Shown: piece by piece, positions 8,578 to 63,735 of the stretch
Numbering within the stretch: position 1 is the stretch's first letter
How the letters are laid out: each line of letters starts with the position of its first letter
Source of the DNA: Raillietiella orientalis
Taxonomy: Eukaryota
DNA: 64,000 nt
Assembly: GCA_036172245.1 (NCBI GenBank)
Contig: JAYWIR010000026.1
Coordinates: 930,001-994,000, forward strand
Reading direction: 5' to 3'
Notes under the pieces: model-generated
The model's input: only the letters and a program-made list of their open reading frames with translations
The model's database searches: none
Told to the model about the DNA's origin: nothing
Translations under genes and position numbers: made by a program

Positions 8578-11500
8578 TCACGTGACGAGGATGGAGCTCT
8601 TGCGCCTCGTTCGCAGCTTCTTGGAGAGCTTCTCCTGCTTCATCTGCCTCCTGTGGAGCACGTAGCAGACCATTGACACGGCCCCACCCAGGAGCGTGGC
8701 GAACCCCGCGAAGTGGAAGGCGTACTCGTAGGACTGCGTGACGTCGTAGATGGAGCCTGGAAGGCACGAGGGGATGCACGCGCTCCGGTTTGCCCGCCGC
8801 TCTCTCCGTCGCGGGGTTGACCCGCGCCTTCCCCCATGCCCCTTACCTGCCACGGGCGGGCCCAAGAGAGCGCCGAGGCCGCAGAAGAACAGGATGTACC
8901 CGAAGACCAGAGCCAGGTTGTTGGGACCGTACACGTGGCCGGGAGCGACGGCCAGCAACACGTTCAGCTGACCGTGGAAGGAGCCCATGGTGACACACAG
9001 CGCGATCAGCCCCTCCATGGTGCTGATCTGGTTGTGGTAGAGGACCGCCGCCCCGCACAGCATCTGCGCGATCGAGTAGTAGCACACGGAGTTCACGAAG
9101 GACCAGGAGCAGATGGTCCCGGCGATGAGGCGGCCCAGGAGGTCTCCCAGGCCGATCCCGGACAGGGCGTAGATGAAGCGTTCGGTGAACCCCCTGCTGG
9201 AGGCGAAGTCCTTGTACAGGACGTAGAGGGTCATAGTGCTCATGACCCATAGCATCCCGGACATGTTGAAGCACCAGAACTTGACGTCCGCCAGCAGGTG
9301 GCGGTCGAATGGCGATAGGCCGTGGGGGTGAGGAGGGTACTGAAAGTCGTCGCCGCCGGGGTGGTCGCAGGCATCCTCCTGCCCTGCGTTGGCCTGCAGG
9401 TCAATGCTCTCCTGGGAAGCCAGCGGCGCTATGGAGAACCTCGGCTCCGCCGGGGGTCGATCTTCGTCCCCGTCGCCGTCATCGTCGTCGCACAGGAAGT
9501 CGTCATCGGCGTCGTCGCCGCCGCTGGAGGGGGCCGCTGACACGGCCTCATCTGCTGAGCGGGGCTCGCTCCCGCTGTCGGAGGCGCTGGGGGAGACCCG
9601 CCGGTCTCTCCCGCCGGAGGGAGGCGCGTCGGTCCTCGGTGTGTTCTCCGGGTTCGAGTCCGCCTGGCTGTCCTCCTCCTTCTCCTCCATGATGTCGGAG
9701 TGCCAGGAGCGGAGGGGCTTGGCATGGATCTTCTTCAGCTGTTGCACGCTTTTCGGCAGGAGCTTCTGGAGGCCCTGGGCCTTGCTGGACTCAGTCTTGC
9801 GCCTGGGGGACTTGTCCTCCCTCTCCGCCGGCTTCTTCGTTCTCCTCTTCTTGCCCTCCTTCGGGGCCGCGGCGGGGACTACCTCCCGGGAGGAGGCCCG
9901 CTGGGCCGCCGCCTCCAGCTTGCGCTTCTCGATGCGCTCGCGCAGCTTCTCCGGCCGGCGAAGGATGCTCTCGGCGAAACTGTGGCAACGGTCCCTGGAC
10001 TCCTCGTCGCTAAGCACCTCCTCCGAGTGGTAGATGGGCAGCGACATGAAGCTGGAGCTCCTCCTCCTGGACAGGTCCATGTCGCACAGGCTGTTGATCG
10101 AGTGGGAGAGGAAGCTGGAGGAAGGGCACAGCTGGAGGTCCTTGATGCTGCCGGACGTCTGCCGGTAGCCCACTCGGATCTCCTTGACCTTCTTGTCGAG
10201 CACGACGGGCCCCGCGGAAGAGACCCTCTGTTCCTTCCCGGGCGGGGGCGGAGGTGACGTCGACGAAGGGGCCGCTTCGCCCCCGCCCCCGCTCCCGACC
10301 CACTCGCACAGGTATCCGGACTCAGCGTACTCGTACACGGTCATCCGCACCGGGTACACGAGCAGGCCGAAGACGCAGAACTGCAGCGCCAGCCCCGCAT
10401 TTATCAGCAGCGACCCGCTCCACCCGTAGTAGGTGACGTTGAGCTCCATCAGCGGGCCGAGGAAGAACAGGCCGCACCCGAAGCCGGTCATCGCCAAAGC
10501 CGTGGCGATGGCGTGCTTCTTCTGGAAGTAGGTCCCGAGAGTGATCACCCAGCCAGAGAAATTGAAGCTCAAACCTATGGCTGTGGGGGAACAAAAAAAA
10601 AAGAGAAGAAAAAAAAAAGAAAAAAAATAAAGGCGGGGCTCGCGGGCCACGTTCGAATGTCGGGCTCGGGTGGTGTTCTTTGTTGACAGAAAGCAGAAAG
10701 CGGCCCTTCCTCCCCTCCCCCTCCCTTCCCGTGCGCGGGATGAGAGGCGGAGGAGCCCTCCGCCGGGGGAACGCGCGCGACCCACCCGTCCCAACTGGGA
10801 AGGGGACGAGGAGGGAGGGAGAAAGGGAGGGGAAAGGAAGTGGAAAGGAAGGAAGAAGAACAAAAGGAGGAGGAGAGGAGAAGGAAGAGGAAGCAAGGAG
10901 GAAGAGAAGAGGAGGAAGAAGAAGGGAGGAAGGAGGAGAGAGGGAGGAAGAGGAGAACGAAGGAGAAAATAGGAAGGGGAAGAAAGGAGGAAGAAGAAAA
11001 AGTAACAGATGGGGAGGAGGATGAGAAGGAAGGGGAAAGGAGGGAGGATGGAATTCTCGAGTTAAGGAAACCAGATAGCTCGTTCCCGTGGCGGCCTGCG
11101 CTTCCTTGTCAGGCGTCTAGAGGGCGCAGCGTTTCGTGCCGAGGGGAGGGGAGAGGAAGGGGGGCGCAAGGCCGCGACAGAGAGAGCGCGCTGCGCAACC
11201 TCGCCCTATTCGGAAGCGCATTTTTCTCCCTCGGGAGGTGTCGCGCGCATTTCACGGTCAGCGCTGCCTCCGCGCTGGATCCAGGTCACATGCTGCGGTG
11301 CCTTCAATTCCCTACTAGGTGGGGTAGGATGAGGTGGAGGTGGATGAGGGGGAACAGGGGAAGAAGACGATCGCATGCGCTCGTCGGGCGCCAACAGAGG
11401 GGTCCTCAGACGACCTCCGCTTGGGAGTTCCTGCGCTTCGGAAGGAGGAAGTTGCAGGCCCCAAACAAAGGGGGGGCCGGCACGCAGAAGGGAAGCTGAG

Positions 11501-32500: not shown

Positions 32501-33120
32501 CTCCGGAAAACGACCGACTGAACGCGTCAGATAAAGGGCAACGCCGGCACGATCTGTGCGTACAAATAATTTCCCTCGCGTGACTCCGGAAGCTCGATTT
32601 ACGCGCTCTCTACTTTCCAAGGAAGACACACTGACACCAATTCTTTCTGGCGACTCCCATCTTGATCCCGCGACTCCCAACCGTCCCTCGTTCCAAACAC
32701 CCAAAAGAACGCAAAAGGGAGTAACGCTCCCGACGGCAGCTTCCAGCGCGCGCAACTCGGACGGGTCTGCAAGAAAGCAGCAGGTTGGCACGCGCAGGCG
32801 GAGCTTTTCATTTTCCCAGCCCCCTCCCCCTGCTTCTGTTAGCGGCTGCACGTTCCAACGGATCTCTCGGGCTTACCGGACAAAAGAGAAAAGGCCAAAA
32901 AGCCTCCCAAGAGAATCATCCACGCCCATCCTTGATCTATGTCTCTTTGCTCCTCCTCCTCCTGTTCGTGGATTTTCCTGAGCAAGGGATCTTCTATCTC
33001 GCTGAATTCTTGGCCCAGAACGGTCTTCTTCCACGTGTCCATCAAAATCGCTTCCCCCTTCAGGGAGCATTTATCCAGCATGCTGTCGTCGAAGCACTTT
33101 CGATCACGAGTGGGCTCCAT
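8578..33120 (-). CDS. SLC16 / monocarboxylate transporter-family MFS protein, ~804 aa, 5 coding exons: 33120-32877, 11822-11709, 11661-11518, 10580-8847, 8756-8578
   Basis: Exon 1 encodes the MCT N-terminal signature [13 protein letters not shown] and ends at a phase-1 GTAAG donor that joins [10 protein letters not shown]. It continues [32 protein letters not shown], a long low-complexity loop, [29 protein letters not shown]. All introns are GT-AG and the total of 2415 nt is in frame. AATAAA lies on the minus strand at 8557-8562. An alternative ATG is at 33081. Confidence 0.88.
10765..11050. repeat. GA-rich polypurine low-complexity tract in MFS intron 3
   Basis: Nearly pure G/A runs (GAAGGAGGAAGAAG...). 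Similar tracts occur at 750-905 and 11920-12025, and a pyrimidine version at 7640-7770. Confidence 0.85.
12978..13022. repeat. 45-bp dispersed repeat, copy 2
   Basis: 43/45 identity to 908-952. Confidence 0.85.
13059..13105. repeat. Perfect 21-bp inverted repeat with 5-nt loop
   Basis: GCGTTGCGTAATCCAGGTGTC-cgcgt-GACACCTGGATTACGCAACGC; the arms are exact reverse complements. Confidence 0.95.
13375..13870 (-). mobile_element. tRNA-headed SINE-like repeat, copy C
   Basis: Minus-strand B-box-like GAGTTCGAATC (13807-13817). Body 13410-13650 is similar to 2140-2400. Confidence 0.55.
14830..15150 (-). mobile_element. Degenerate RLE-type (R4/Dong-like) non-LTR retrotransposon fragment, pre-endonuclease zinc-knuckle region
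   Basis: Frameshifted peptides [11 protein letters not shown] (like ETEGFxxAAQD), DTKCTSCAE (CxxC) and DALA...DVAKV occur in the order expected for R4-like ORFs. The fragment is truncated at the AT-rich island 14395-14830. Confidence 0.45.
17560..17940 (+). mobile_element. Degenerate L1/Tx1-like ORF1 (gag-like) fragment
   Basis: VAGYP...IRRALAG...[17 protein letters not shown]...NLPLRG*PF is followed by a broken zinc knuckle (*CGSLG...GCP). This resembles Tx1-type ORF1. Confidence 0.4.
20665..21460 (+). mobile_element. Possible Penelope-like element 3' end and pseudo-LTR
   Basis: Stop-interrupted peptide HPNSKIGY...LAR...SRHLTEI*NE*TKTINSF..EYPKA weakly resembles a GIY-YIG C-terminus. It is followed by a CCAAT/CRE tandem repeat, a TATA-like GTATATAG (21359-21366) and a degenerate hammerhead-like core. 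Confidence 0.35.
21154..21330. repeat. 77-bp tandem repeat, 2.3 copies
   Basis: Units start at 21154, 21231 and 21308. The first two are identical; the partial third has one mismatch. Units contain GCCAATCAG, and the junctions form TGACGTCA. Confidence 0.95.
25100..26300 (+). mobile_element. Possible highly decayed Penelope-like reverse transcriptase
   Basis: Colinear fragments [32 protein letters not shown]...GHLNN and DLKSE...MQANVY..FIRHL resemble Penelope RT/thumb motifs. The catalytic DD is not recognisable. Confidence 0.3.
29374..29694 (+). pseudogene. COX1: Nuclear mitochondrial insertion (NUMT) of the COI 5' region
   Basis: In the invertebrate mitochondrial code (TGA=W, AGA=S, ATA=M) it reads [100 protein letters not shown]. 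It is truncated, carries substitutions at normally invariant sites, and ends in a C-run/(CA)n. Confidence 0.95.
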
Positions 33121-33299
33121 CGGAGAGAGAGCGCACGAATCACATGGAAGCAAAAATTCTTCAGCCGGTTCGCACTCGGTGAGGCAGCGAGAGACGAGGA
33201 TCGAAACGGTACGGAATCAATGGAGCTGCGGCATGACGTCACGCACACTTTGTCGAAAAGTCGGCGAGAACGGGGGCAGCAACCATCCGCGGCCACTCA

Positions 33300-33760
33300 A
33301 AAATCGGAGGCGACGGCACACATCGCCCTTCGCCACCTCCGCAGAGCACATGCACGAGCGGCACATGCAGGAGTTCGATTTATTTCCCTCTCCCGACAGC
33401 GCAGGCGCGCTCGCACGGGAAGCTGCGGGTCGCGCGCGCCGGGACCGCGCGCGGACCCGGCGCGGCGGACGAGCCCTCCTCCGGGAAGGCTTTTCGCGGG
33501 CGCACAGGGAGGAGGAGGAGGGCGCGGGAGAGGCGGGTCACTCGGGGAGAGGGCGCAGGGACACGGACGTCGCCCCGGGAAGGCAAGCGATCCATGCGAA
33601 TCGCGTCGCCATGGAGGCGGCCGATGCGGCTGCGTGCGGGCATTCCGCACGCGCACGGTGCACACAACACACCACCAGCGTTTTGAGATCGCCTCCGGGG
33701 TCGTCGTGGGGCGTGTGCTCGCCGCGGGACCGGGCCCACTGGGCCCACTAATAATAACCT
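33300..33760 (-). promoter_or_regulatory. GC/CpG-dense region upstream of the MFS start codon (probable promoter/5' UTR)
   Basis: Very high GC and CpG density, 200-650 nt upstream of the first coding exon. The call rests on position and composition only. Confidence 0.4.
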
Positions 33761-36239
33761 CGTGCCATCTTTCGCACTGCCCATCAAAAAGTTCTGCCCC
33801 AGCAAAATCACGTCCAGCGGCACGCAAGTCCCTACAACCGGGGATCGCGTCGTCATGGTGGTCGGGGCGTCGCTCGGCAGTGGTCATTATTCTATCCCAA
33901 GTTGTCAGTATTTTATTTCGACGAGCCTTCTGTCCGAATCAGCGGAAACTTTGCATCCTGCTTCCAGTTCATCCTCCCGAAAATTCCCTAGAAAAGTCCC
34001 CAGTACGCGTAGGTCATCATCTCGTGCTGGACAGGTCATTCAAAGTAAAGGCTCTTCTCATGCTTGACTCTTTTCGAGATTCTGCGATTGAAAAAAAAAA
34101 AAAAAAAAAAAGAAGCACGCACGAAGCAAATTACGCATATGTGTATAAGGAAAAAAGAGCATTCCCGATATTCTTTTTTTGCTTATACGTTCTTTTTGGA
34201 TGTTATTTCCCGATCGTGCCCTTTCGAAGATGCAACTTTGAGATTTCGATCGTGTCCCCTACATAGTTTCGAGAACCTCCATGCGAACCGAAGACCATTT
34301 ATCCACCATCCAAAGTTTTCACGAGGAGGCTTTTCTGGGAAAAAGGGGAAAAAAGACGCATAAATCAAGGCATGCAGGGGACGTGGTGCGCACGTTGGAA
34401 AGTGAGGCGAAAACGGGACACATGCCCTTTTGTCTCCCCATCAGAGATTTTGCTCCCCCTGCCTCTTGCATCTCACCGCGGTGCCTCCTCTATCCCCATT
34501 CCGAGAGTGAAAGGCGTCAGCGGTTCCGCGGCGCTTCCTCGGATGATTCCTGGACCACAGATGAAAAGGAAATTCGCGCTCACCGAGAGTGCGAGGGCGT
34601 GGCGTGCCCAAGAGCAAGAAAGAAGGTTTGGTTGAATAATAAGAATAAACAAAAGGCCAATACTGCGTGCACACCTTTTCCTTTCCTCGTGTCTTTCAAA
34701 CACCTATGCGTAAATACGTATTCCTTACCGACAGGGTTTTTCTAATACTATTAATAATAAACATGGCAAACTTGCCTGCCCTTCATCAAAGCACTCAGTG
34801 TGGTCTGTTTACGCATTTCCTTAGATATCCTGTTTTCATCAAAGCTTTATGGACGCTTCAGAAAAAAAGTGAATCTTCACTTTACTGTGTTTTCCTGCTT
34901 TAGCGAGGAGAGGGTGTAAGACGACGAAACTGACAGGGAATAAATCGTGACCTCCACGTTCAAAAAAAAAAAAGGGGGGGGAAAGGCATGGTCGGCGATT
35001 TGGAACGAAAGCAGAAATTCGAAATCGCAGCTCCAAAGTCAGGACTCCCTTATCTTCCCGTTTCGCAACACGCGACTTTTTCTGCACGTCTAAAAATAGA
35101 ATAGGTCCTTCACTCTGGATCCGAAGCTGTTCCCACGGAAACGGAAGGCACAGCTCAGCTGCCTCGGATTTCAACCGTCCGTCGCCATCTGACTGCAAAG
35201 TTCGCGTGTACCAGCCGTGACGATTCCAAGACGTCCCCCTCCCCCCATCACTGTGGATGGACCGCTACGCAGTCGACTCTGTGGACCAGGAGCCCAAACA
35301 TTCCGACTTGTTCATCGGAACACGGGAAGAAAACACGGAAAGCCTGAGCAAGTCCGTGGAAGCCGATCCGCACGAGGCGACGGCGGATCTGAAGCGCTGG
35401 TTTCCCTGGAGACGGGAAACCTTGCGAGGTTTGAAAACGCGCCGCGACCGACCAACCAGGGATCGTCACGATTTCGGCCCGGGTGGGCGTTGGGGAGTGC
35501 AGGTGTCACCCGCGCCGTCTGTCACAACTACGACCACCCCGCTATTCTCTCCCGTATTCCCTTCGCCGTTAACCGCCCCCCTTAAAAAGAATCCGAGGAA
35601 GGCACTGCATCCTCTGTTTGACCCATCCTTCAGAAGACAGACGGACGAGAGAGAGAAATCCCGACGAGGTCAGTCCCAGTAGTTTCTCGAGAACTTGCCT
35701 TCAGGGTTTCCCATACATTTCTGATGTCAAGGCCTTGCTGTTTCTGATGTTGAATTAGAGCGTCCAAGAATCCGCGCTTCCATCCAGATGAAGGAGGGCT
35801 GCGAACCCCGGAAGTAAGGACCGCGCAGGGGTCAAGTTCGAAGACGCTTGCACTGCTTTTCCTTGAGAGAGGCAGTGTCCAGGAGACCGAGGCAGCTAAA
35901 GAGTGTTTCGAGATGCCAGCCGGAAGAGAACTTTCGGAAGTGGCTGCTCCAGAACAAACAAATCCAGAACAAACCAGCTCAGGGAATCAGTCACGTCAGG
36001 AGGAGGAGCAGCGAGGGAGCGCGCAGCTTCCCTATGGGTTCCCGGGAAGGGTTTGCGCCTGAGGAGAAGCAGGCGTCCGGGCAACCAGAGACCCTGAAAT
36101 GAGGCGACACATCCATGGTTCCGGAGGACGAGCGAGCTTTGCGCATCTCTCTAAGCAGAAATGGGAACCCGGTCACGTCGGGACGTTTATTAAAAAAAAC
36201 TAAACTACAAGTCCAAAGGGAATGGTATCCCTTCAAAAA

Positions 36240-49039: not shown

Positions 49040-50345
49040 ATGTCATCGCTTCCTGAAGCCATCATTAAGAAGTATTTTGAAAATTATGCTTCTTGTGATT
49101 TTGATATCCTTTATGTGCCTAAAATTAATCAAAGACAGCGGATTCCTTCTGTATTATTGATGGATGATTGCGACATTGATCATGCTGGGTCACAAGCAGA
49201 GATTTGTGAAACTTGTTGTGGTGTAAGAGAATTGGATTTGGCACATAATAAATTAACTTCTTGGAAAGAGGTATGATATTGTGCAACTATTAATATGTAT
49301 ACTTTGGATCTTTGTTAAGGTAAATAAAATTCTTAGCCAAATTCCAAATCTACTGTTTCTGAATTTAAGTTTTAATAAATTAGGAGAAGATAAAACCGTT
49401 TTCTCAAAAGGCTTAGTACTTCCCACATTAAAGAAACTTGTTTTAAATGGGACCTTTATCAGTTGGTCTACAATTCAAAGCATATTAAGAAACGCACCAT
49501 GGTAAGTCAGATATATGTGCAGGAGACAATTTGTTGTGATCAGTTTAGAAGAACTTCACTTGAGTTTAAATGGTTTGGAGACAGTGTTCTGTCAAGAAAG
49601 ACATTCTAATGTGAAAGTTTTACATTATTCAAAGAATCCACTGAGGCAATGGGAAGAACTTCACAAGATGGGAGAAGTGTTCCCTCATCTGCAACATTTG
49701 ATATTGGCAGAGTGCCCCATTTCAATGTTTGGTCCCCTTTCATTTTCTTTAATGTTTCCAGAATTGCAATCCATAAATCTAAATGAATCACTGCTGGATA
49801 GTTGGGAAGAATTGGACAAATTAGCAACTTTGCTTTCATTAGTAGACCTCAGATTATATCGCTGTCCATTATTAAAGCACTACAACCATACTGAACGTAG
49901 ACAATTGCTAATAGCCCGATTACCCAATATCCATCGTCTTAATGGGAGTACAGTAACTTGTCAAGAAAGAGAAGACTGTGAACGTGCTTTTATTCGACAC
50001 TGCCGATTGAAGCAAGAGCCCCTACCTGCACGATTCTGGGAATTAGTCAAAATTCATGGACTGCTGGATCCTCTAATTGATGTTGATTTTAAGCCCCCTA
50101 CCGAAGCTCTTATAAACATTCAATATGGAGAGCACGAAGAACAGTTAACTGTCTCTGTGTATTTAACTGTACAGCAGCTTAAAAGGCTCCTGTTTCCAAT
50201 AACCAAATTGCAACCAAAAAGTATGCGCCTTTATTATGTTGATCAGGAGGGAATCTTTGGGCCTGAGGAGATGCGTTTCAAAAATAAGAAATTGTATACA
50301 TATAACATGCAAAGTGGTGATGCGATAATAGTAGACAACAAATGA
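49040..50345 (+). CDS. TBCEL: Tubulin-specific chaperone cofactor E-like protein (LRR + C-terminal ubiquitin-like domain), 404 aa; exons 49040-49270, 49320-49501, 49544-50345
   Basis: PSVLLMDDCDIDHAG...VRELDLAHNKLTSWKEV, LRRs, RRQLLIARLPNIHRLNGS...EREDCERAFIR, HGLLDPLIDVD, GPEEMRFKNKKLYTYNMQSGDAIIVD. No CAP-Gly domain. GT-AG introns of 49 and 42 nt restore one frame. Confidence 0.93.
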
Positions 50346-53259: not shown

Positions 53260-55872
53260 ATGGAAGTTTCCGAAGTGGCGAATGCTCATACATATGACGA
53301 AGAACTGAATCTTAGTCATCAGAATTTGGAGCATTTAGAAAAGTCTCCCAATTGCCAAGTTTCGGCCCTAATTTTGGACCATAACAAATTGACCAAATTA
53401 GAACATATCGAAACTTATGGGAATCTGCAAAAGGTATCATGTAAAATTCGTTTCCACTGTTTACAGTTTTGTGTTCCTATAGTTGTCTGCAGCCTATAAT
53501 GGATTAGCACGAATGTACAGTATATCACGCCTTTATACAATTAAGTACCTGGATTTATCAAACAATAATATCGTCTCCATAGAAGGCTTGCGGGATATGA
53601 TTCATCTGAAATATTTAAATCTTTCTGGAAATAATTTAAAGGTACTGTAATTGTTTTTTGTTCATTTTCTACTGTTTGACATATTTAGGTCCTGGAGCAT
53701 CTTCTTTCAAACATTAACATTGAACATCTGGATGTATCCCATAACAGCATAGTCAAGATATCTGACCTGTCTCATATGATCAAGTTAAAGGTTAGACTGG
53801 AGATAGGTGCAGTTGAAGCTGCTAGGAATATTTACAGCGGCTACATCTGCATGCCAATCGTATCAACACTCTCAAATGGTGTGAACGCTTCCTCCCTCTC
53901 TCATTAGAAGTGCTCACATTAGCCAGCAACAGGATTGCAGATCTCACTGAGTTATGTTATTTGCGACATCTGACAGTATTACAACAGTTGACAATACATT
54001 CCAATCCATGTGTTCAGAACCTGTATCCTTTGCAGTAACCATTATGTTTTGTAATTCTTAACACACCAGTCAGTTCGATCCTCGTCCTTATATTATTAAT
54101 TGGTGTCTTAGTCTTTCTTTATTAGATAAAGAAAACGTTACGCCTAAGGAATGGTTAGTAGAAGTCGTTTGTTTGTTTTTCATTTTGCTTTCACAGTCTC
54201 AAGGCTGAATGGTTATACTCCCAAGGGCGAGGACGTGGCTTTGCTCCTGGAGAGCATTTCAAACTTTGTGAATACTTGAAATCTGTTTGTCCTCTAGGAC
54301 AAGATTTGGGAGCAAGTCGGTCTGAGGAAGATGAGCATCTAATGCGCATTCTTTCCAAGGCTAAACAGCATCAAAAGGAACTCCAAACCTTGCCCAAAGA
54401 GGTGAGAATCAGAGGTTGATAGTGAACAATGAGCACTTTTTCAGAATTCGCCCAAGAAGATTTTCAAGAAAAGCACATCCAAATTGCGTATGATATCTCA
54501 ACGGGGAAATAATGTTAAGACTTCATTACACAGAGGACGTCCTTTCAACTTCGAGCTGTTGTCTTCAATTTATGGAGCTGAGGATTCGGGAGTTGATTTA
54601 ATGACTCAAAGCTGTGTAGGCAGCTTGTCATCCCCCTCTAACTATATTTCTTCAAAAAGTGATCTGATGACCCAAAGTCTGGATTCGCATGCTCTGTCTT
54701 TATCTTTGGGAAGCACTGACCTGCAGCAACAGAACGGATGGACATGTAAGAGACCAAACAGCTTGCAGGTGAGCCAACATTCTAGTCGCAGTGATGCATC
54801 TACATTGGACATTAGTGAAGGTTTGTAAAGAATGTTGTTATGGCATAAACAATTCACTTATTAAAGGATCAATGTGCAGCCAATTATCTGGAATCTCTCA
54901 GTTCGTTCCTGCACCTGAAAGCATTCTTAGTCCTGATCTCTGTCCACCTTGCAGGAAACCAATTGTAAATCAGTCATTTAGACGTGTAACTTCAGGTGCA
55001 TCTGCACACCAGCACAAAACAATCACAAACATAAGAACAGTTCATAGTGCACCTACTCCTCTTAGAAACACTACATCTGTTAAAATTCCAAATAAAAAAG
55101 AAACAGTTGTGAAAACAGCAACAGCTACATGTTCCAGAATGCCTTTGTCCAATGATTATGCAGGTGGTGATACTAGTGACAGCAATGAAAGTGAAATCTC
55201 CATGTCAAAGCTGGTGGTCATCAGAAAAAAGGCATCTCAGAAGCGAATGCAAGAGAAACCTCAGCAAGAAAAACTGCAAAACAAAGCAGCTAGTCTTATC
55301 CAAAAAGTATGGAGAGGTTATGCAACACGCCATTTAAATCCTCGAGTGTTACGCATTCTCCAACAAATTCAAATCCATAGAGCAGAGGAACATATTTGGT
55401 GAGTTCATTTGACTACTATCTCAGCTGATATTATTTTGTAGTAAACTGACTAAAGATCTGATGCAGACACGAGTAGCTCTGGATCGGGAAAAACAACTGC
55501 GATCTCTTCAGACAGATGCAATCCGTGGCTTATGGCAAGAGGTGATTGGAAAATTTAAAGTTTGTTTTATGCTGCATTTAGGTTCAGGCCCTACATTTGA
55601 AGAGCCTCCCTGCTTCTGGATCAGAGACTTTCATGGATAACAGTGCTGTTCAAGGAGCCATTCAGGAAGTATCCCATACTTGCACTATGCTGCAGGAGCA
55701 AGTACATGGCATTCAACTGATGCTACAGGCGATGTTACAACCTTCACTGAAGGTTGCTGTGGGCACGAACACCAATTGGACTTTCACTTTCATTATGGAA
55801 ACTATTCTTATGTATGCTGAACACTTGGTTACCAGCATATTACAGTCAGCCTACAGTGAATGGAAATCTTAA
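53260..55872 (+). CDS. CEP97: Centrosomal protein 97 (LRR + IQ motif); exons 53260-53433, 53483-53641, 53689-53790, 53838-54022, 54070-54153, 54197-54401, 54445-54820, 54867-55398, 55442-55541, 55582-55872
   Basis: N-terminal LRRs, then NPCV..FDPRPYIINWCLSL...LKAEWLYSQGRGRGFAPGEHFKLCEYLKSVCPL (characteristic of CEP97). These are followed by IQ motif AASLIQKVWRGYATR and a coiled coil LDREKQLRSLQTDAIRGLWQEV. Nine introns of 40-49 nt, all phase-consistent. Confidence 0.92.
54023..54069 (+). other. U12-type (minor spliceosome) GT-AG intron, 47 nt
   Basis: 5' site GTATCCTTT, branch-site-like TTCTTAAC at 54055-54062, no polypyrimidine tract, 3' CAG. Removal restores the frame NPCVQNL/QFDPRPY. Confidence 0.85.
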
Positions 55873-55940: not shown

Positions 55941-58900
55941 TCATGAAGAAAAATTGAGGATCAGATCATATTGCTGGTCAAGGCCCAGATAGCAATCTGA
56001 CATCAAGTAGAGGATCAAACACATTTTATCTAGGCATACAGTAGACACACATAGTCTTAAATCTCCTTACCTGAACATGGCCGAGGTGTTTGGAAAGACA
56101 GCAGCTGTGTAGTTGAACTTCTAAAGGGAGCTACCCTTTTCAGTGCCAGTAATTCTCCAGAATCAGGAAGCCCCAACAGAAGGAACCAACCCTCTTCTTT
56201 TGTCTTGGGGAATTTAGGACAAAATGCAAATCTGCTGTATTTTTTGGCAGTGGTGCAACATGTCAGCTTTACATGCAGTGAATACTGCTGGTCATGAAGC
56301 ACAGAAAATGTAGGCACACAGCTATCCGTTGGACACATTTCCATCAGAGTTCCTTTACATGACTGCATTCTCAAAACTATCCTTATCTTTGGCAGCACAT
56401 GCAATGTTTGCAAAATATCTTCTATTTGACTTGATTCTAGTAAAGCTCCCAGTTTGGAATAAAGCTGCTCACTGATGGTATTGCAATGTAATAAATCCGG
56501 TAGTGTAAGCATAGGATACGAGGCTGATCTAAAAATCACATTTTTTTACATAACATAAAAACCACCTCACTTCAGGTAATAGAGATGACGGTTCTCTAAA
56601 TGGGGAAGAATGGTGATACTATTGCTGGTTAGCCAGCAACCTTGAACTACCATTTGCAACAAGTGTATAACAAGCAAACTGGTAGACAGCCAACTTTGTG
56701 CAGCACACATGTCAGTCATTGCCTACAAAGACAGTTTTCATTGAATTCCTACAGCAAAATTACCTGTAGTACTCTAATAGTCTGATCCAACACGGATTTC
56801 AAGTCAGTTTCATAATCTACACAAGGCAAGGGGATTTGAGAGAAATGTGCTTGCAACAGCAAGAAAGTCTTGGTATGAGGGTTATCAAAGGGCATACTGC
56901 CAACAGGCAGAGGGCACATTGATGCCATATTGCTAATAAACATAAGTAACAAAACAATTATTAATTTTTTTGGCCTCTTGCCTGTTCATAATGTCTTCAT
57001 TATGCCGAACAGGCAATTCATTATATTCATGTGCATGACAAAGTAGTATTAGCAGGGATTCGAGACTACTGTTAGCTTGCAAAGACGTCCTAAACAACTT
57101 AATCGTGATATGAGATATGTAATAATACGAGGATATCTGCCCTAAAGCAGTTGGTGAAACAGATCCATCCTCCTGTCGAACTGCTTGTGAACATGCTAGT
57201 GGATGCAAAACAATGCTAACCTTAGTTATAATGCAACCCGCATCTTCTAGTTCGTTGAATGATTTCTGCACTGTTTCGGATAAATAAGCGTTGATAGTTG
57301 ACTGCTCCAGATTTTCCAGTTGATAATAAGAGGGGTTTTCCAGTAAACGACGGAAAAAGTATGTCCATGTGAGGTAATCCAGGGCATCTTGTCGTGTGGC
57401 GATAGTAGCAGCAACAATTTCAGCATTCAAGTGCTCCGGTAACACACACTGAAGACTGGATTCTACAGGAAAGGGCTCGTACAGGAATTTCTTATAGAAA
57501 TTTTTCTTGATATCGTGAACTAATATGACTGCTACGCCATGGTCATCAAATTGAGGTCGGCCTGCTCGTCCCATCATTTGTAGAACGTCTGTAATGGGAA
57601 AATCTACGTATCGCTTGGTCTTGCCATCATAATATTCAGTGCCTTTGACCACCACTAAGTGTGCTGGGAAATTCACTCCCCATGCTAAAGTGGAAGTTGC
57701 AATCAATACCTAACAGCAACATAGTTTTTAAATTCACACTGCTATCCGCTTACTTGAATTTTTTGTTGCACAAATAATTCCTCGATCAGACGTCGATCTT
57801 CTTCCTGCAGTCCTGCATGATGGATGCCAATACCAAATGATAAAGTCAGCTTCAAATTAACATCATGTACACAAGAGAGAATCATATCTAACTAATAACA
57901 GAAGAATGCTGTCTTCACACTTGGCAAACCATCAAAACGGTAAACCTCTGTTTCTCCAATATGAATCCACTGTTTTGGATTATCTTCTGCTGCCAAATGA
58001 GATATCAAATCTAGTGCTGTCAAGCGAGTTTGTCGGCGTGATGATACAAACACTAAGGCAGGTTTCTCAGGAGAATGGGTACGGATAGCTGAAGACAGCA
58101 TTTTATGTGATTTCATTTATATGCACTTTACCCTGAAATGTGGGTTTATTCATTGTTGCCATACGTGGACAATAATGTTTCCCTGGGAATCCAGAAATAT
58201 GTACTTCCAGAGGTACAGGGCGTACAGAAGGACGGAAGTTATATAAACCCATCTGAACAGCAAAGAGGAAATAAGATGTTATCCTGCTGTTGAACTGCTT
58301 ACCTCACCAATACCCAGCCAATCAGCTAAGTCAGGTGCATTAGCCAAGGCTGTAGATAGACCTATTATACGTAAGGTGCGCCCAGTGTGACTGGCAATGT
58401 AATTCACTCTTGAAACAATGACTTCCAACACAGGACCCCTATCCTCTCCTACAAAACTGCATGTTCTATCATCTCAAAGACAACAGGTCAATCAATACCC
58501 AAAAGATGTATTTCATCAATGATCATAAGAGAGATAGCACGTACATAACTTCGTGTCTGCCAGCTACGACTTACACCATCCCATTTCTCAGGAGTGGTTA
58601 TGATTACATCTGCTTTAAGAATTGACTGGATATCTGGTGTTACGTCACCAGTGAGTTCCGTAACATTTTTTCCCAGGTGGCCCTGCAGGCGTTTGGTCCA
58701 ATCAAGCATTCTTTCTCTTGCGAGTGCTTTCAAAGGTGCCACATAAACTACTTTTCCGTCAGGATATTCTTGAAATACACGGAACATGGCAATTTCAGCA
58801 GCAATAGTTTTCCCTGAGCCTGTTGGTGCTCCCAAAAGCACATTGTTATCAGTGTAATACAGACAATGAAATAATTGCGTTTGAATAGGATTAAAATAAG

Positions 58901-61900
58901 AAAAGGGATACAATTCTTGCAATGTTGGATCCTTCAATGCTGCTGTGGGCAATGGTTGGAGATCTAGTAATTCTAGGGAGATAATCAGTTTAAATGGCTG
59001 TTCTTTTTGCACAAAAACCATTTACTTGTATGTGGTGGATGACGAACTGGTAAAATCAGATGCTGAAAGTTAAGGGAGAGAACATTATCACATCCTAGCC
59101 AACGATCACTGAGTACCCGTACTAGATACCAAGAAGGCAATGGTTCGGAGATAGGAATGGCAAATACAACGAGGACTTTTTCTTTTTGAACCACCTACAC
59201 CCAAATAACCACACTAAAGAAGTCAGATTCCTGACCTGCTTTTTGCTGATGATCACAAAATCATGATGATACATATGATTGGTGTTGAGATCTTCCACCC
59301 AGATCCAGAAAGATTCCCCTGTCCGTCCACTAATTGCATCTACCCACGTAAAATCTGGTTGAAGTGTCAGGCGAACCCTCAAAATGTTGCTTGTGATTGG
59401 CTGCAGCACAGCATCCAATTCCAAGTGTGGCAAGCCACAAGCAAGCTTCTTGACTTCATCAGCCATTCTTTGGTTTTGAATTAAGTGTCCTAGGCAATAT
59501 TTTATGATTGACGAATAATGTGTTCTCACCTATTTCTTTTGGATCAAGGTCTCTCAATTTCTCCAGACCTAATTTTTTACTTTCAATCTTATCCAAAATC
59601 TCAACACTCAAACCAGACACTTGTCTTAGTGGATGCATAAAATGCCACTGACGTTGTTCCAACACTTTGCAAAGAGTCAGTAATCTGCCTGAAAGAAGGG
59701 GCCAACCACGGTGCAATACAATCTCAAATAATCCGCGCAGTATTCTTGCAGCATTCTTGAATACACATGAGAAAAAATCACATATGATAATTTTAACCTT
59801 ACTTGTGAGATGTATGCCATATCGGAAACAAGAGAGAAACTCTCGAGCAGACTACGACCAATATATGTTTGCAGCAAAATGTTCACCTTGCCATATACAT
59901 TTTCACAACCTCCTGGAACACGTACTTGGCAGTCTTCATTTAAATGACTGTCTAGTTCACTCAGTTCATCATCTCTCACCTGATAACATATGGTAACTAC
60001 CATCATAAAAAAGTTGCTCAAATGCAATACCTTGAGCTGGTTAAACTCTTGTGCTTTTGAAATAAGAGCCAATAAATCGGCCTCTGTCATCATAGGTAGC
60101 AGCATTTCATTGAAAATTTCAATGGTGTCATGTTTGATGTAGAAGTGACTTGCAATACGTCCTAGGTCTTCAAGACACAAATATATGATACCATTTTCTT
60201 ATTATAAGTTCACCTGTAGCAAATAAATAACCATTGCAATCATCATAGCGAATCATGTGACTTTTATCTAGAGTGCAAGCCGCTTGGTGCACTATCTGGG
60301 TACGATAATTGACCAGAAACGGATCATCTAATACTTCTTGATATTTAATGCCATATGTCTGTGGACTAGCACGCATTCGCACATACAAATACGTGTAGCT
60401 AAGCCAAGTAACAGCTTCCTGAATGGTACCTACTGTACCCAACGATATCTGCGAAAACACAATTCTTGTTGATTTAAGAAAACAAAATTACCTCAGCATT
60501 TAGATTGTCAACTAGCTGTTGCACAAAGCTGCTTTCAATAGGGTATTGACAAGTTAGCAAGGATAGATAGTGATTCAATTTTGCATGAGAGGTTAGGATG
60601 ATTCCATGACCAATTTTATCAAACTGAGGTCTTCCAGCACGTCCAAAAATCTGCATGACATCCAAAACACTCAGATCAACAAAGTTACCATATTTGGAAT
60701 CATAAATATCTGTGCCCTGTTGCCTGGTTGATGAAATGAATAAAATAAACTGTTTATTTTCGACCTTGATGATGACTGCATGTGCTGGAAGATTAATACC
60801 CCAGGCCAATGTAGATGTACATACAAGCACTTTGATTAAGCCATTGGCAAAACATCGTTCCACTAAAGTACTGAATCCAAATGTGCGTAAATATAAGACA
60901 AGAAAAAATAATTACCGATCAGTTCTGAGCATACCAGCATGATGAATGGAAAAACCATCTGCAAAAAGTTCCCTCAATTGCTTGTTTTTGGAACGGAGAA
61001 TTGCTTTATAAGCTGTGCCATATTCAAGAGATGAAACACAACGAAAATTCAATATCTCATCTGAGTGCAATGCCAAGTCACGCAACACAAGGGCTGTGCG
61101 AACAGTAGCATTTCGTGCATGAACAAATACCATCACCTAAAGCATGACTTCTTTCTTCAAGATATAAACCTACTTGAAACCCTTCTTTCACAAACTGCAA
61201 CACCTTCCTAAAGCACACTTGATCCATATCCTGAAGTTGCTGTAGAGGATTGGTCACTTTCATTCCTATGAAAGTTTGAGAAAGTGGCACTGGTCTGAAA
61301 AAGCTATTAGAAAATTTCAAGCAACACAACAACTACCTAAATCTTCCATCAAAATAAAACAATCCAGTAGAGGGATTCACCTTGAGAAAACGGGCTACAT
61401 CCACATAGCCAGGTAAGGTGGCTGATAAGCCAACAATGCGAATCATGGATTGTGAAGATTCCACCTTAATTTGAAGAAGTCATCATATTCTAGATAAAAA
61501 ACATACCTGTCGTAGTGTTCGTGCGACTAAGGCTTCAATAACTGGACCACGATCACCATGCAGCAAATGTACTTCATCAATGATAAGCAACTTGGTTAAA
61601 GTGACCAGAGTGGCATCACCTAGTATAGTTACCTATTAACTACTTTTCACACTACACATAAAACTACCTGGTTTTCTGGTGATTACATCCCATTTTTCTG
61701 GAGTGGTGACTATCATCTGAGTGGATAAGATTTCCGACTTTGTGAGTTGCATGTCTCCAGTGAGTTCACGAACTTTCAACCCAAGAGGATCCAAGTTCTT
61801 ACTAAATGTTCGCACCATTTCAGCTGCCAGAGCCTTCATTGGTGCCACATATACAATCTACAAATGATTTAATCCAAGAAAGGCAAATTATAACCCAACT

Positions 61901-63735
61901 TTGAAGGAGTCTTTAAGTATGGTTGAACCTTCCATGTGCATTTTAATCTGATGACCAACAGTAAGCAAAGCTATATTCGTTTTTCCAGCTCCTGTGGGAG
62001 CACATACCAGTAGATTCTCATTACTATGATAGGCAGTATTCAGCACAACAGACTGAATGGGGTTCAAGTACTTGCAGCCACGAAACAACAATTGTCCAAG
62101 CTAACTAGATGATAATAAATGCAAGTTGAATGCATACTCACATCATCCAACTGATCAATTGCAATTCTTTTCTGATTATGTAATGGGGAAGTAGTTGTAG
62201 CAGGAATGAAAATTTCCTCATAATTTGCTTCATTGGTGCATTTGTAATCAGAAGGCAATGACATTTTGCAGCCAGAAATATAAGCTGTGACATCAATAAA
62301 AAACATGGATTAATTCACCAATCATTCACCTGCTGTATTTTTAGTTTCTTGGGAAGAATCAAATACAAAAGGATAATTTACTTGTGATGAAGAACTGTGG
62401 AAAAGTGGTTGTGATGAGGAACCATGGAAAAGTGGTCGCACTGAAGCAGCTAACAGTGCATTTTCTCTACAAAAAGCACTGCATACACTAAGTGCAAATA
62501 CACCTTACCTTTCTTTCTGAAGCTCCTGCCAGGTTTCATTATCTTTTCCGCTGGACTTGTTCATGAATTTTTTTTCTTCTTTACGAATCATTTTTCTCAA
62601 CTGCTTTTCCTGTTCTGACTCTACTAATACCATTCCTTGACAAACTGGCTGCTTGAAACGTTCCTCTTTCCTGTATGTGGAATAAATACTCGAATCTGCT
62701 TTACGATTACCACATCTATTTGAGCTTCCATGACAGAGTTCTAGACGATGTGCAAGGATCTGACTAATTAAATCTAGTTGATTAAAACCTAACAGTTCAC
62801 AAAGCTTTCACAAGAGATAAATCAACTCTCAAGGTTTACAACACACCTCATTTTCTAATTCCAAATTGCTTTTAGAAGTCATTAATAAGGTTATCACTGA
62901 AGCAGCCATTTCAGAGACTGTGACATTAACATCAGGGCACAACTTCTCTTTTAACCACTGCAAATCAAACTTGACTCTGTTTGCTGCTATTTGAGGTGGC
63001 TTAGTAGAAGCTTTCACAACAGACATAAAACTTTCTCTTGTCAACAGGCTATCTAGAGGTTCGTTGAAGCTAAGTTTGAAGAGTTTATCTACTTCAAGAT
63101 CTTTCAGTGGATCCGAACATGAGAATCTGATGTTAGTTCCGAATGCTTTTGTCAACAGTTTCCATGCATCTGAGGTGTCATTAGTGAAGATCAATTCCTG
63201 ATGAAAATTTTGCAACAATGCCTTAACAATCTGAAATACTTCTAGTGACATAATTAAAACAAGGTAAAACAAACTTTAGAGGCATCGTCAAATAAACGCC
63301 TATCAATAATTCCAAATAAATTACGCAGCTTAATGAAATCTTGGGTGTCAAGAGAATCTTTATTCAACAAGATGTTGAATAAATAGCATATTACATCTTG
63401 AATAATTTCAATTTTTTCTTCTGCACACATCGTACTGCGTATAATTTTAATCAAATTTGCCAGTTCTTTTTGCAAATTTTCATCCGGGGACTTCACTAAC
63501 GTTTGCAACTTATTCCAAGTAATGTGAACATTCCTAATAATAGAATCAACAAATCAATAAGCCTGCAGGTTAATATTGAAGGAGTCCGAAACCTTTTATG
63601 CCTTTCAAACTGTTCTATGTACTTCTCATTTAGATTGAAAGATTCACATGTTGTCTCTGCAGTACTTAGAGATGTATGTGCAATAAATGCTCCTGATAAT
63701 CGTGGAACATCCAATTGATTGATAAAATTTTCCAT
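55941..63735 (-). CDS. ASCC3: Activating signal cointegrator 1 complex subunit 3 (tandem Ski2-like helicase + Sec63 cassettes), ~32 exons
   Basis: N-terminal VPRLSGAF (ASCC3-type rather than BRR2). Two helicase cassettes: [26 protein letters not shown] and [26 protein letters not shown]. Sec63 regions and C-terminal [15 protein letters not shown]. About 31 introns of 40-59 nt. AATAAA on the minus strand at 55923-55928. Confidence 0.96.
56933..56981 (-). other. GC-AG intron (49 nt) in ASCC3
   Basis: Exon ends ATG AAC AG|GCAAGA and the intron ends TTTATTAG. Splicing gives [18 protein letters not shown]; no GT donor of workable spacing is available. Confidence 0.8.

Follow-up and report, generated by a model that had tools for sequence, protein, structure and literature searches.

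A probable 47-nt U12-type intron in CEP97 of Raillietiella orientalis, shrunk from an ancestral minor intron

Can an animal intron of only 47 nt belong to the minor (U12-type) class, and if so, with which ends? The question is raised by one interval of the window analysed here, a stretch of 64,000 nt that corresponds to positions 930001-994000 of a contig in the 210-Mb genome of Raillietiella orientalis. The initial annotation placed there a minor-spliceosome intron of CEP97, with a GTATCCTTT donor, a TTCTTAAC branch site and adenosines 8-9 nt from the end, and these elements, as well as the 47-nt length, are found in the sequence as described (Table 1). The adenosines 54060 and 54061 of TTCTTAAC lie 9 and 8 nt, respectively, before the last intron base, and the latter (or the former) is the likely branch A.

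The host gene was identified through a downstream exon, for which 530 relatives were obtained; the named ones among the 120 matches listed are almost all CEP97, and the best matches are insect proteins, with at most 63% identity. The homologue search started from the leucine-rich repeat (LRR) exon gave no matches, and no solved structure of CEP97 matches the query exon.

Class assignment and orthologous introns

Concerning class membership, the donor agrees with RTATCCTT through GTATCCTTT and the branch site is TCCTTAAC-like through TTCTTAAC. The intron lacks a pyrimidine tract, has its acceptor near the branch, interrupts the frame in phase 2 and is conserved in position and class among orthologues, while the U1-type donor and the pyrimidine-rich acceptor seen in local introns are both absent from it. 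Local introns are represented by a reference set of 29 U2-type introns, composed of the 24 of 29 ASCC3 candidates that passed a support filter plus five CEP97 introns, with donor scores computed by leave-one-out; they measure 37-54 nt (median 45). The remaining conserved CEP97 introns (49, 47, 47, 43 and 43 nt) are U2-type without exception. None of the 29 neighbouring U2-type introns shows a U12-like branch motif in its last 25 nt, and the window contains the donor-branch-AG pattern a single time, against 0 of 100 dinucleotide shuffles.

Table 1. Features of the CEP97 locus (window coordinates) and of 14 further short U12-type introns of the same genome. Tail: distance in nt from branch A to last intron base.
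Feature	Position	Strand	Length and tail	Basis or remark
CEP97 coding region, ATG to IQ-motif exon	53260..55399	+		Gene's 3' end lies past 55399
CEP97 exon upstream of intron, leucine-rich repeats	53838..54022	+		Ends with NPC + 3 codons + 2 nt (orthologues 7 + 2)
Probable GT-AG U12-type intron, phase 2, fourth CEP97 intron	54023..54069	+	47 nt, tail 8	Motifs and orthologues
U12-type donor GTATCCTTT	54023..54031	+		Predicted pairing with snRNAs of this genome: U11, 6 bp, -5.3 kcal/mol; U6atac, 6 bp, -6.4
Inner in-frame GT (GTAACCATT), 12 nt into intron	54035..54043	+	Would make intron 35 nt	7/9 donor identity; orthologous-donor register
In-frame TAA inside intron	54036..54038	+		Retained intron would give truncated CEP97
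U12-type branch site TTCTTAAC	54055..54062	+		Predicted pairing with the genome's U12: one G-U, bulged A
Acceptor AG, without pyrimidine tract; conserved Phe codon 4 nt on	54068..54069	+		Register shared with 8 orthologous loci
Further AG, branch A +12 nt	54072..54073	+		U12 donor joined here gives frameshift and early stop
CEP97 exon downstream of intron, FDxRPY motif of LRR cap	54070..54153	+
Other frame-keeping excision, GT	54035..54069	+	35 nt
Other frame-keeping excision, GC	54032..54069	+	38 nt
Other frame-keeping excision, GT	54012..54073	+	62 nt
Replication factor C intron			44 nt, tail 10	Both-sided Pfam
TsaD/OSGEP intron			47 nt, tail 7	Both-sided Pfam
eIF2A intron, AT-AC			47 nt, tail 8	Both-sided Pfam
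Formin intron			46 nt, tail 9	Both-sided Pfam
Derlin intron			45 nt, tail 11	Both-sided Pfam
DRAP1-type intron, AT-AC			50 nt, tail 8	Both-sided Pfam
Strawberry notch intron			63 nt, tail 7	Both-sided Pfam
USP intron			56 nt, tail 10	One-sided Pfam; ends from frame and known homologues
PIGN intron			53 nt, tail 10	One-sided Pfam; ends from frame and known homologues
SETD1 intron (L028), AT-AT			59 nt, tail 9	One-sided Pfam; ends from frame and known homologues
Prefoldin intron			43 nt, tail 12	One-sided Pfam; ends from frame and known homologues
ACTMAP intron			69 nt, tail 10	One-sided Pfam; ends from frame and known homologues
FKBP intron, AT-AC			76 nt, tail 10	One-sided Pfam; ends from frame and known homologues
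PARP intron			62 nt, tail 10	One-sided Pfam; ends from frame and known homologues

A metagenome scan provided 40 CEP97 loci that were compared at the protein loop in which the intron lies: 17 have an intron within the loop, 22 have none, and one ends there. Wherever the donor sequence of an intron-bearing locus is covered, it is U12-type. Five loci (L150, L151, L155, L163 and L175) present a GTATCCTT donor in phase 2, seven codons after the NPC motif, and eight (L150, L151, L155, L164-L167 and L175) have their AG 4 nt upstream of the Phe codon, the same as in the window. Seven other loci have a phase-2 AG 1 nt before the Phe codon, with a GTATCCTT or GTATCTTT donor in the four where it is covered, and L180 has a ATATCCTT donor with an AT start. 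L163-L167 match termite proteins P0008 and P0018 in the loop region, and the insect-like loci L150, L151 and L163-L167 carry the intron in the loop, phase and acceptor register of the window. The U12-type call of the initial annotation is thus borne out by an orthologous U12 intron in other animals, with class, phase 2 and acceptor register in common. The difference lies in size, since the orthologous introns measure 107, 176, 195, 195, 267, 268, 558 and 560 nt and have tails of 11-14 nt (15 loci; the branch call is weaker at degenerate motifs), versus 47 nt and 8 nt in the window.

Across animals (L146-L185) the distribution of the CEP97 U12 intron is patchy, and one group has its acceptor one codon downstream; the intron is absent from the fish-like L159 and from rotifer-like loci. 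In the Timema CEP97 model P0047, a peptide inserted before the LKAEW motif resembles the translation of a U12 branch site, a hint that the following CEP97 intron may be U12-type and mis-annotated there; its counterpart in the window, at 54154-54196, is U2-type.

Table S1 in Janice et al. 2012 (PMC3291851) includes, as no. 67 and with Mount et al. given as source, a GT-AG U12 intron of honeybee Cep97 (GeneID 726438). Gene, class and terminal dinucleotides are those of the window intron, and as the table gives neither position nor length, the two introns are presumably, rather than demonstrably, the same. Human and mouse CEP97 are absent from the Minor Intron Database tables in eight supplementary files of PMC6717393, where RFC5, DRAP1, SBNO1 and DERL2 are found, and the main texts of the literature searched hold nothing relevant on CEP97 with a minor or U12 intron.

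Taken together, the U12 signals and the presence of a long same-class intron at this site in other invertebrates make a shrunken copy likely. We hence regard 54023-54069, with a probability of roughly 0.87, as an ancestral, already catalogued CEP97 U12-type intron, reduced in size to 47 nt and probably excised by the minor spliceosome. Both the intron and its size class are already in print.

As described in PMC3584512, U11/U12 engages donor and branch site jointly, no pyrimidine tract is needed and the acceptor is picked by distance. For the CEP97 intron, the U11/U12 particle would bind donor and branch site at the same time, U6atac would take over from U11 at the donor, and the A at 54061 (or 54060) would form a lariat of 39 nt. 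The AG ending at 54069 (+8), as the first one at least 7 nt past the branch A, would be preferred over the AG at +12. Loop and tail may have been shortened by the same deletion pressure as the U2 introns (~45 nt), and both could lose bases since a pyrimidine tract is not required in U12 introns. The protein loop bearing the intron would have lost four codons, a change tolerated in the family.

Two donors for one acceptor

The initial annotation also held that the frame is restored only by the 47-nt excision. This does not hold, since GT/GC-AG excisions of 35, 38 and 62 nt keep both the frame and the NPC motif. The 38-nt GC and 62-nt GT forms were dropped (donor scores -5.4 and -4.1), as were AT-AC excisions at the locus, whose donors carry no U12 motif, which leaves the inner GT as competitor of the outer donor.

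The loop between NPC and FD counts 5 residues after the 47-nt excision and 9 after the 35-nt excision. Nine residues are found in 85 of the 94 measurable orthologues (mostly birds). In the wider family, 59 of 150 matches are measurable and range from 4 to 20 residues, with 9 in 34, 4 in one, 6 in one and 7 in two, so that a loop below 6 residues occurs in just 1 of the 59 representatives. Given the range of 4-20 residues, loop length cannot decide between 47 and 35 nt, and was rejected as arbiter. A class-blind spliced aligner with a flat intron cost, run with 30 orthologues, placed the acceptor at 54069 in all 30, and chose the 35-nt form in 18 and the 47-nt form in 12. It should be noted as a warning that homology-based gene finders tend toward this, probably wrong, 35-nt intron in CEP97.

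When scored as U2 donors, the 47-nt donor reaches -2.0, under all 29 local introns, and the 35-nt donor 0.7, under 28 of the 29 (local range -1.5 to 9.5); hence, neither is good as a U2 donor. The acceptor at 54069, scored as U2, reaches 1.8, within the low quarter of the local set. Predicted pairing with the genome's U11 and U6atac amounts to 6 bp each for the 47-nt donor and 2 bp for the 35-nt donor. The donors of the orthologous genes, together with the acceptor register, favour the 47-nt reading.

The inner GTAACCATT is identical to the outer donor at 7 of 9 positions, a match equalled by 1 of 643 intronic background 9-mers. It is possibly a decayed ancestral donor, or the product of a 12-nt duplication. 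Either four exon codons were lost, the likeness to the donor region being due to duplication or to chance, or the donor shifted 12 nt upstream.

The best placed of the rival explanations, although improbable, is that the true intron is the 35-nt 54035-54069, removed by the major spliceosome after the ancestral U12 donor decayed to GTAACC, with GTATCCTTT being coding. Such an intron would keep the loop at its ancestral 9 residues and start precisely in register with the orthologous donors (NPC plus 7 codons plus 2 nt), it is the choice of the aligner in 18 of 30 cases, and coding sequence does imitate such a donor elsewhere in the genome (L026, L067, L085). However, it would be shorter than all 29 local U2 introns (37-54 nt), it would combine a donor scoring 0.7, under 28 of them, with the lack of a pyrimidine tract, and a perfect U12 donor and U12 branch would have to survive functionless.

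Marginally less probable still is the use of both donors in a twintron-like choice, yielding CEP97 forms that differ by four residues of the LRR cap. Two donors stand in frame with one acceptor, their likeness is rare among intronic 9-mers, and Drosophila prospero and dUrp provide examples of U2/U12 twintrons (PMC3584512), but the inner donor lacks pairing with both U11 and U6atac, is weak as a U2 donor and should lie within the footprint expected for U11 bound 12 nt upstream, and none of the orthologues examined has two donors at such spacing. The least probable reading, in which the 47-nt ends are correct and the major spliceosome uses them with the U12 motifs as relics, would explain a length at the local U2 mode and the GT-AG ends, and GT-AG introns are documented to have converted from U12 to U2 type (PMC2831892), but it would have to accept the lowest U2 donor score of the set, a donor and a branch both at consensus, and intact minor snRNAs.

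Minor-spliceosome machinery and other short U12-type introns

That the lineage kept the minor spliceosome, as first proposed, is supported at the level of the snRNAs: Rfam searches of the genome recovered U12 (98.7 bits), U11 (80.9), U6atac (91.3) and U4atac (69.5), all over their cut-offs and with canonical donor- and branch-pairing stretches. Among the proteins, the U11/U12-25K family matches with 78 bits over 88 of 89 positions, PDCD7 gives a marginal match (27.6 bits), and matches to zf-U11-48K are present, not assignable to SNRNP48. No match to the CCDC84/CENATAC and SCNM1 families came out of the exon-by-exon search, in which short exons are easily missed. U6atac has 14 genomic matches (C36, C19, C30 and others), three of them near full score and some followed by poly(A), which suggests retrocopies, and a second, damaged U11 copy lies 4 kb from the first (L003).

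Genome-wide, the bare motif pattern is not enriched over a reversed control (109 vs 125 and 65 vs 129), and neither are other loose scans (212 vs 261, 86 vs 85, 17 vs 33 and 12 vs 30), with the strictest pattern giving 3 vs 0; the pattern is therefore meaningful only in exon context. Candidates were read in that context for 61 short-bin donors (100 of 109 matches listed; 8 others already included and 3 repeat copies skipped) and for 39 of 50 in the long bin, while variant-branch scans added no convincing intron among 18 donors read. After an open-frame screen, 27 loci were picked by eye and 53 exon pieces were scanned against Pfam. Both sides fall on consecutive domain positions in seven loci, one side only matches in another seven, and the 13 without a match were excluded. 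Where both exons occupy consecutive positions of one domain, the intron ends are therefore fixed. Gene names beyond the Pfam family are our own labels. The SETD1 intron was rejected as a 63-nt AT-AC form, whose frames fail to join, whereas 59 nt AT-AT fits.

Including CEP97, the resulting 15 U12-type introns (Table 1) measure 43-76 nt (median 50), 11 of them being GT-AG, with tails of 7-12 nt (median 10) and donor-to-branch loops of 31-66 nt (39 in CEP97); as the scans were confined to introns of at most ~98 nt with tails between 7 and 17 nt, the length and tail distributions are both censored. The proposal that this lineage shrank its U12 introns to the size of its U2 introns is right for many of them (43-76 vs 37-54 nt), but not universally, since longer U12-type introns exist. 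A candidate is L084 (C27:2049755-2050955, minus), in what we take to be a GAK-like kinase gene, where a perfect GTATCCTTT donor directly precedes a branch-like motif and AGs follow at 35 and 39 nt; the next exon, however, begins only after ~390 nt and lacks a clear U12 branch ahead of it. Two further short U12 introns are likely at L012:1501-1552 (52 nt) and L044:601-649 (49 nt), presumably in a TCP1-like and a DONSON-like gene, respectively; their exon pieces had no Pfam match. In L026 (CTDP1-like), L067 (PSMD11-like) and L085 (unnamed), coding sequence imitates a short U12 intron in its donor, branch and AG, and such mimicry is a trap for motif scans.

Several of the genes that carry the 15 introns (RfC3, CG7414, dia, Derlin-2, FK506-bp2 and C19orf54) are also present in the insect U12 table (PMC3291851). 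The human minor introns of RFC5, DERL2, DRAP1 and SBNO1 measure 934, at least 713, 95 and 91 nt, respectively (PMC6717393).

Branch-to-acceptor distance and short minor introns elsewhere

Short size by itself is not exceptional. The view that U12 introns lack a very-short class, from which the 47 nt would stand out, is contradicted by Blastocystis, where the median minor intron measures 39 bp (PMC10639083), and by honeybee, corn and fugu, for which short-intron peaks are described in both classes (PMC7367187). Across species, minor and major intron lengths are reported to correlate with rho 0.903, Drosophila and many insects nevertheless retaining long minor introns alongside short major ones (PMC10639083); a mean of 687 nt for such long minor introns is given in PMC3291851. 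The genome studied here thus differs from flies. The available text of PMC2831892, PMC3033335 and PMC11347168 contains nothing on intron length or branch spacing.

What sets the CEP97 intron apart is mainly the unusual proximity of its branch point to its end. The short spacing that had been pointed out is real, with 8 nt versus 11-14 nt in CEP97 orthologues, and tails of 7-10 nt are found in 13 of the 15 U12-type introns, independently of intron length (rho -0.17). An optimal U12 branch-to-acceptor distance of 11-13 nt is given in PMC3584512, and is to be read as a typical value and no limit. Tails in the 15 introns are shorter than in eight CEP97 orthologue groups (p = 0.0002), a comparison of 15 different introns with one intron in other species and thus only suggestive. 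The unusually compact U11/U12 recognition geometry that had been expected applies to the branch-to-acceptor tail, but does not extend to U11/U12 bridging, given a donor-to-branch loop of 39 nt in CEP97 and of at least 31 nt in 15 of 15.

As for the choice of the end, no same-class end nearer than +7 is used in the 15 introns, and AGs at +3, +3 and +5 are skipped. CEP97 offers an AG at +8 and a decoy AG at +12, and SETD1 a non-canonical AT at +9 and a decoy AC at +13; use of either decoy would produce a frameshift. Tentatively, and with somewhat less than an even chance, the minor spliceosome of this animal may work with a shortened ruler that takes acceptors at +7 to +10 and skips the textbook 11-13 nt, which, if true, would mean that minor 3' splice-site selection has changed specifically in this lineage, its snRNAs being otherwise canonical. 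Introns of 43-47 nt and tails of 7-8 nt are likely within the reach of an animal minor spliceosome whose snRNAs are canonical. Structural models of how minor 3' splice sites are chosen would find in these introns a natural lower bound, and in the paired decoys a direct test. No report of 7-8 nt tails in an animal was found in the literature searched, older experimental papers and per-species survey tables being outside its scope, and the per-species tables of large surveys may already contain such animals.

Two known systems come close. Blastocystis ST1 has 346 U12 introns and all minor snRNAs (PMC5608401), and resembles the present case in its U12-type introns of ~40 nt (mean just under 42, median 39 bp) and its four minor snRNAs, but it is a stramenopile with 77% AT-AC introns, whereas here an animal has 11 of 15 GT-AG introns at ancestral positions. 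In Physarum polycephalum the terminal A of the motif lies 9-12 bp from the splice site (bioRxiv 10.1101/2020.10.12.336362), which compares with -9 for CEP97 on that count. Physarum, however, has an altered branch motif, TTTGA, and more than 20,000 gained introns, in contrast to the canonical motifs and snRNAs found here, where some branch As are at -8.

Concerning the rest of the window, the GC content falls from ~52% to 40% near 44 kb, where its gene-dense part starts. Upstream of this point lie the long frame of an MFS transporter (8578-11061, minus strand) and a 513-codon open frame without Pfam match (32725-34266, plus strand), and within the gene-dense part, at 49506-50345 on the plus strand, a TBCEL-like exon combining LRR and ubiquitin-like parts. 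The ASCC3 helicase gene (~56070-62850, minus strand) stands tail to tail with CEP97 and contains ~28 introns of 37-54 nt, including one GC-AG intron (49 nt, donor 56981) and one of 37 nt (donor 61173).
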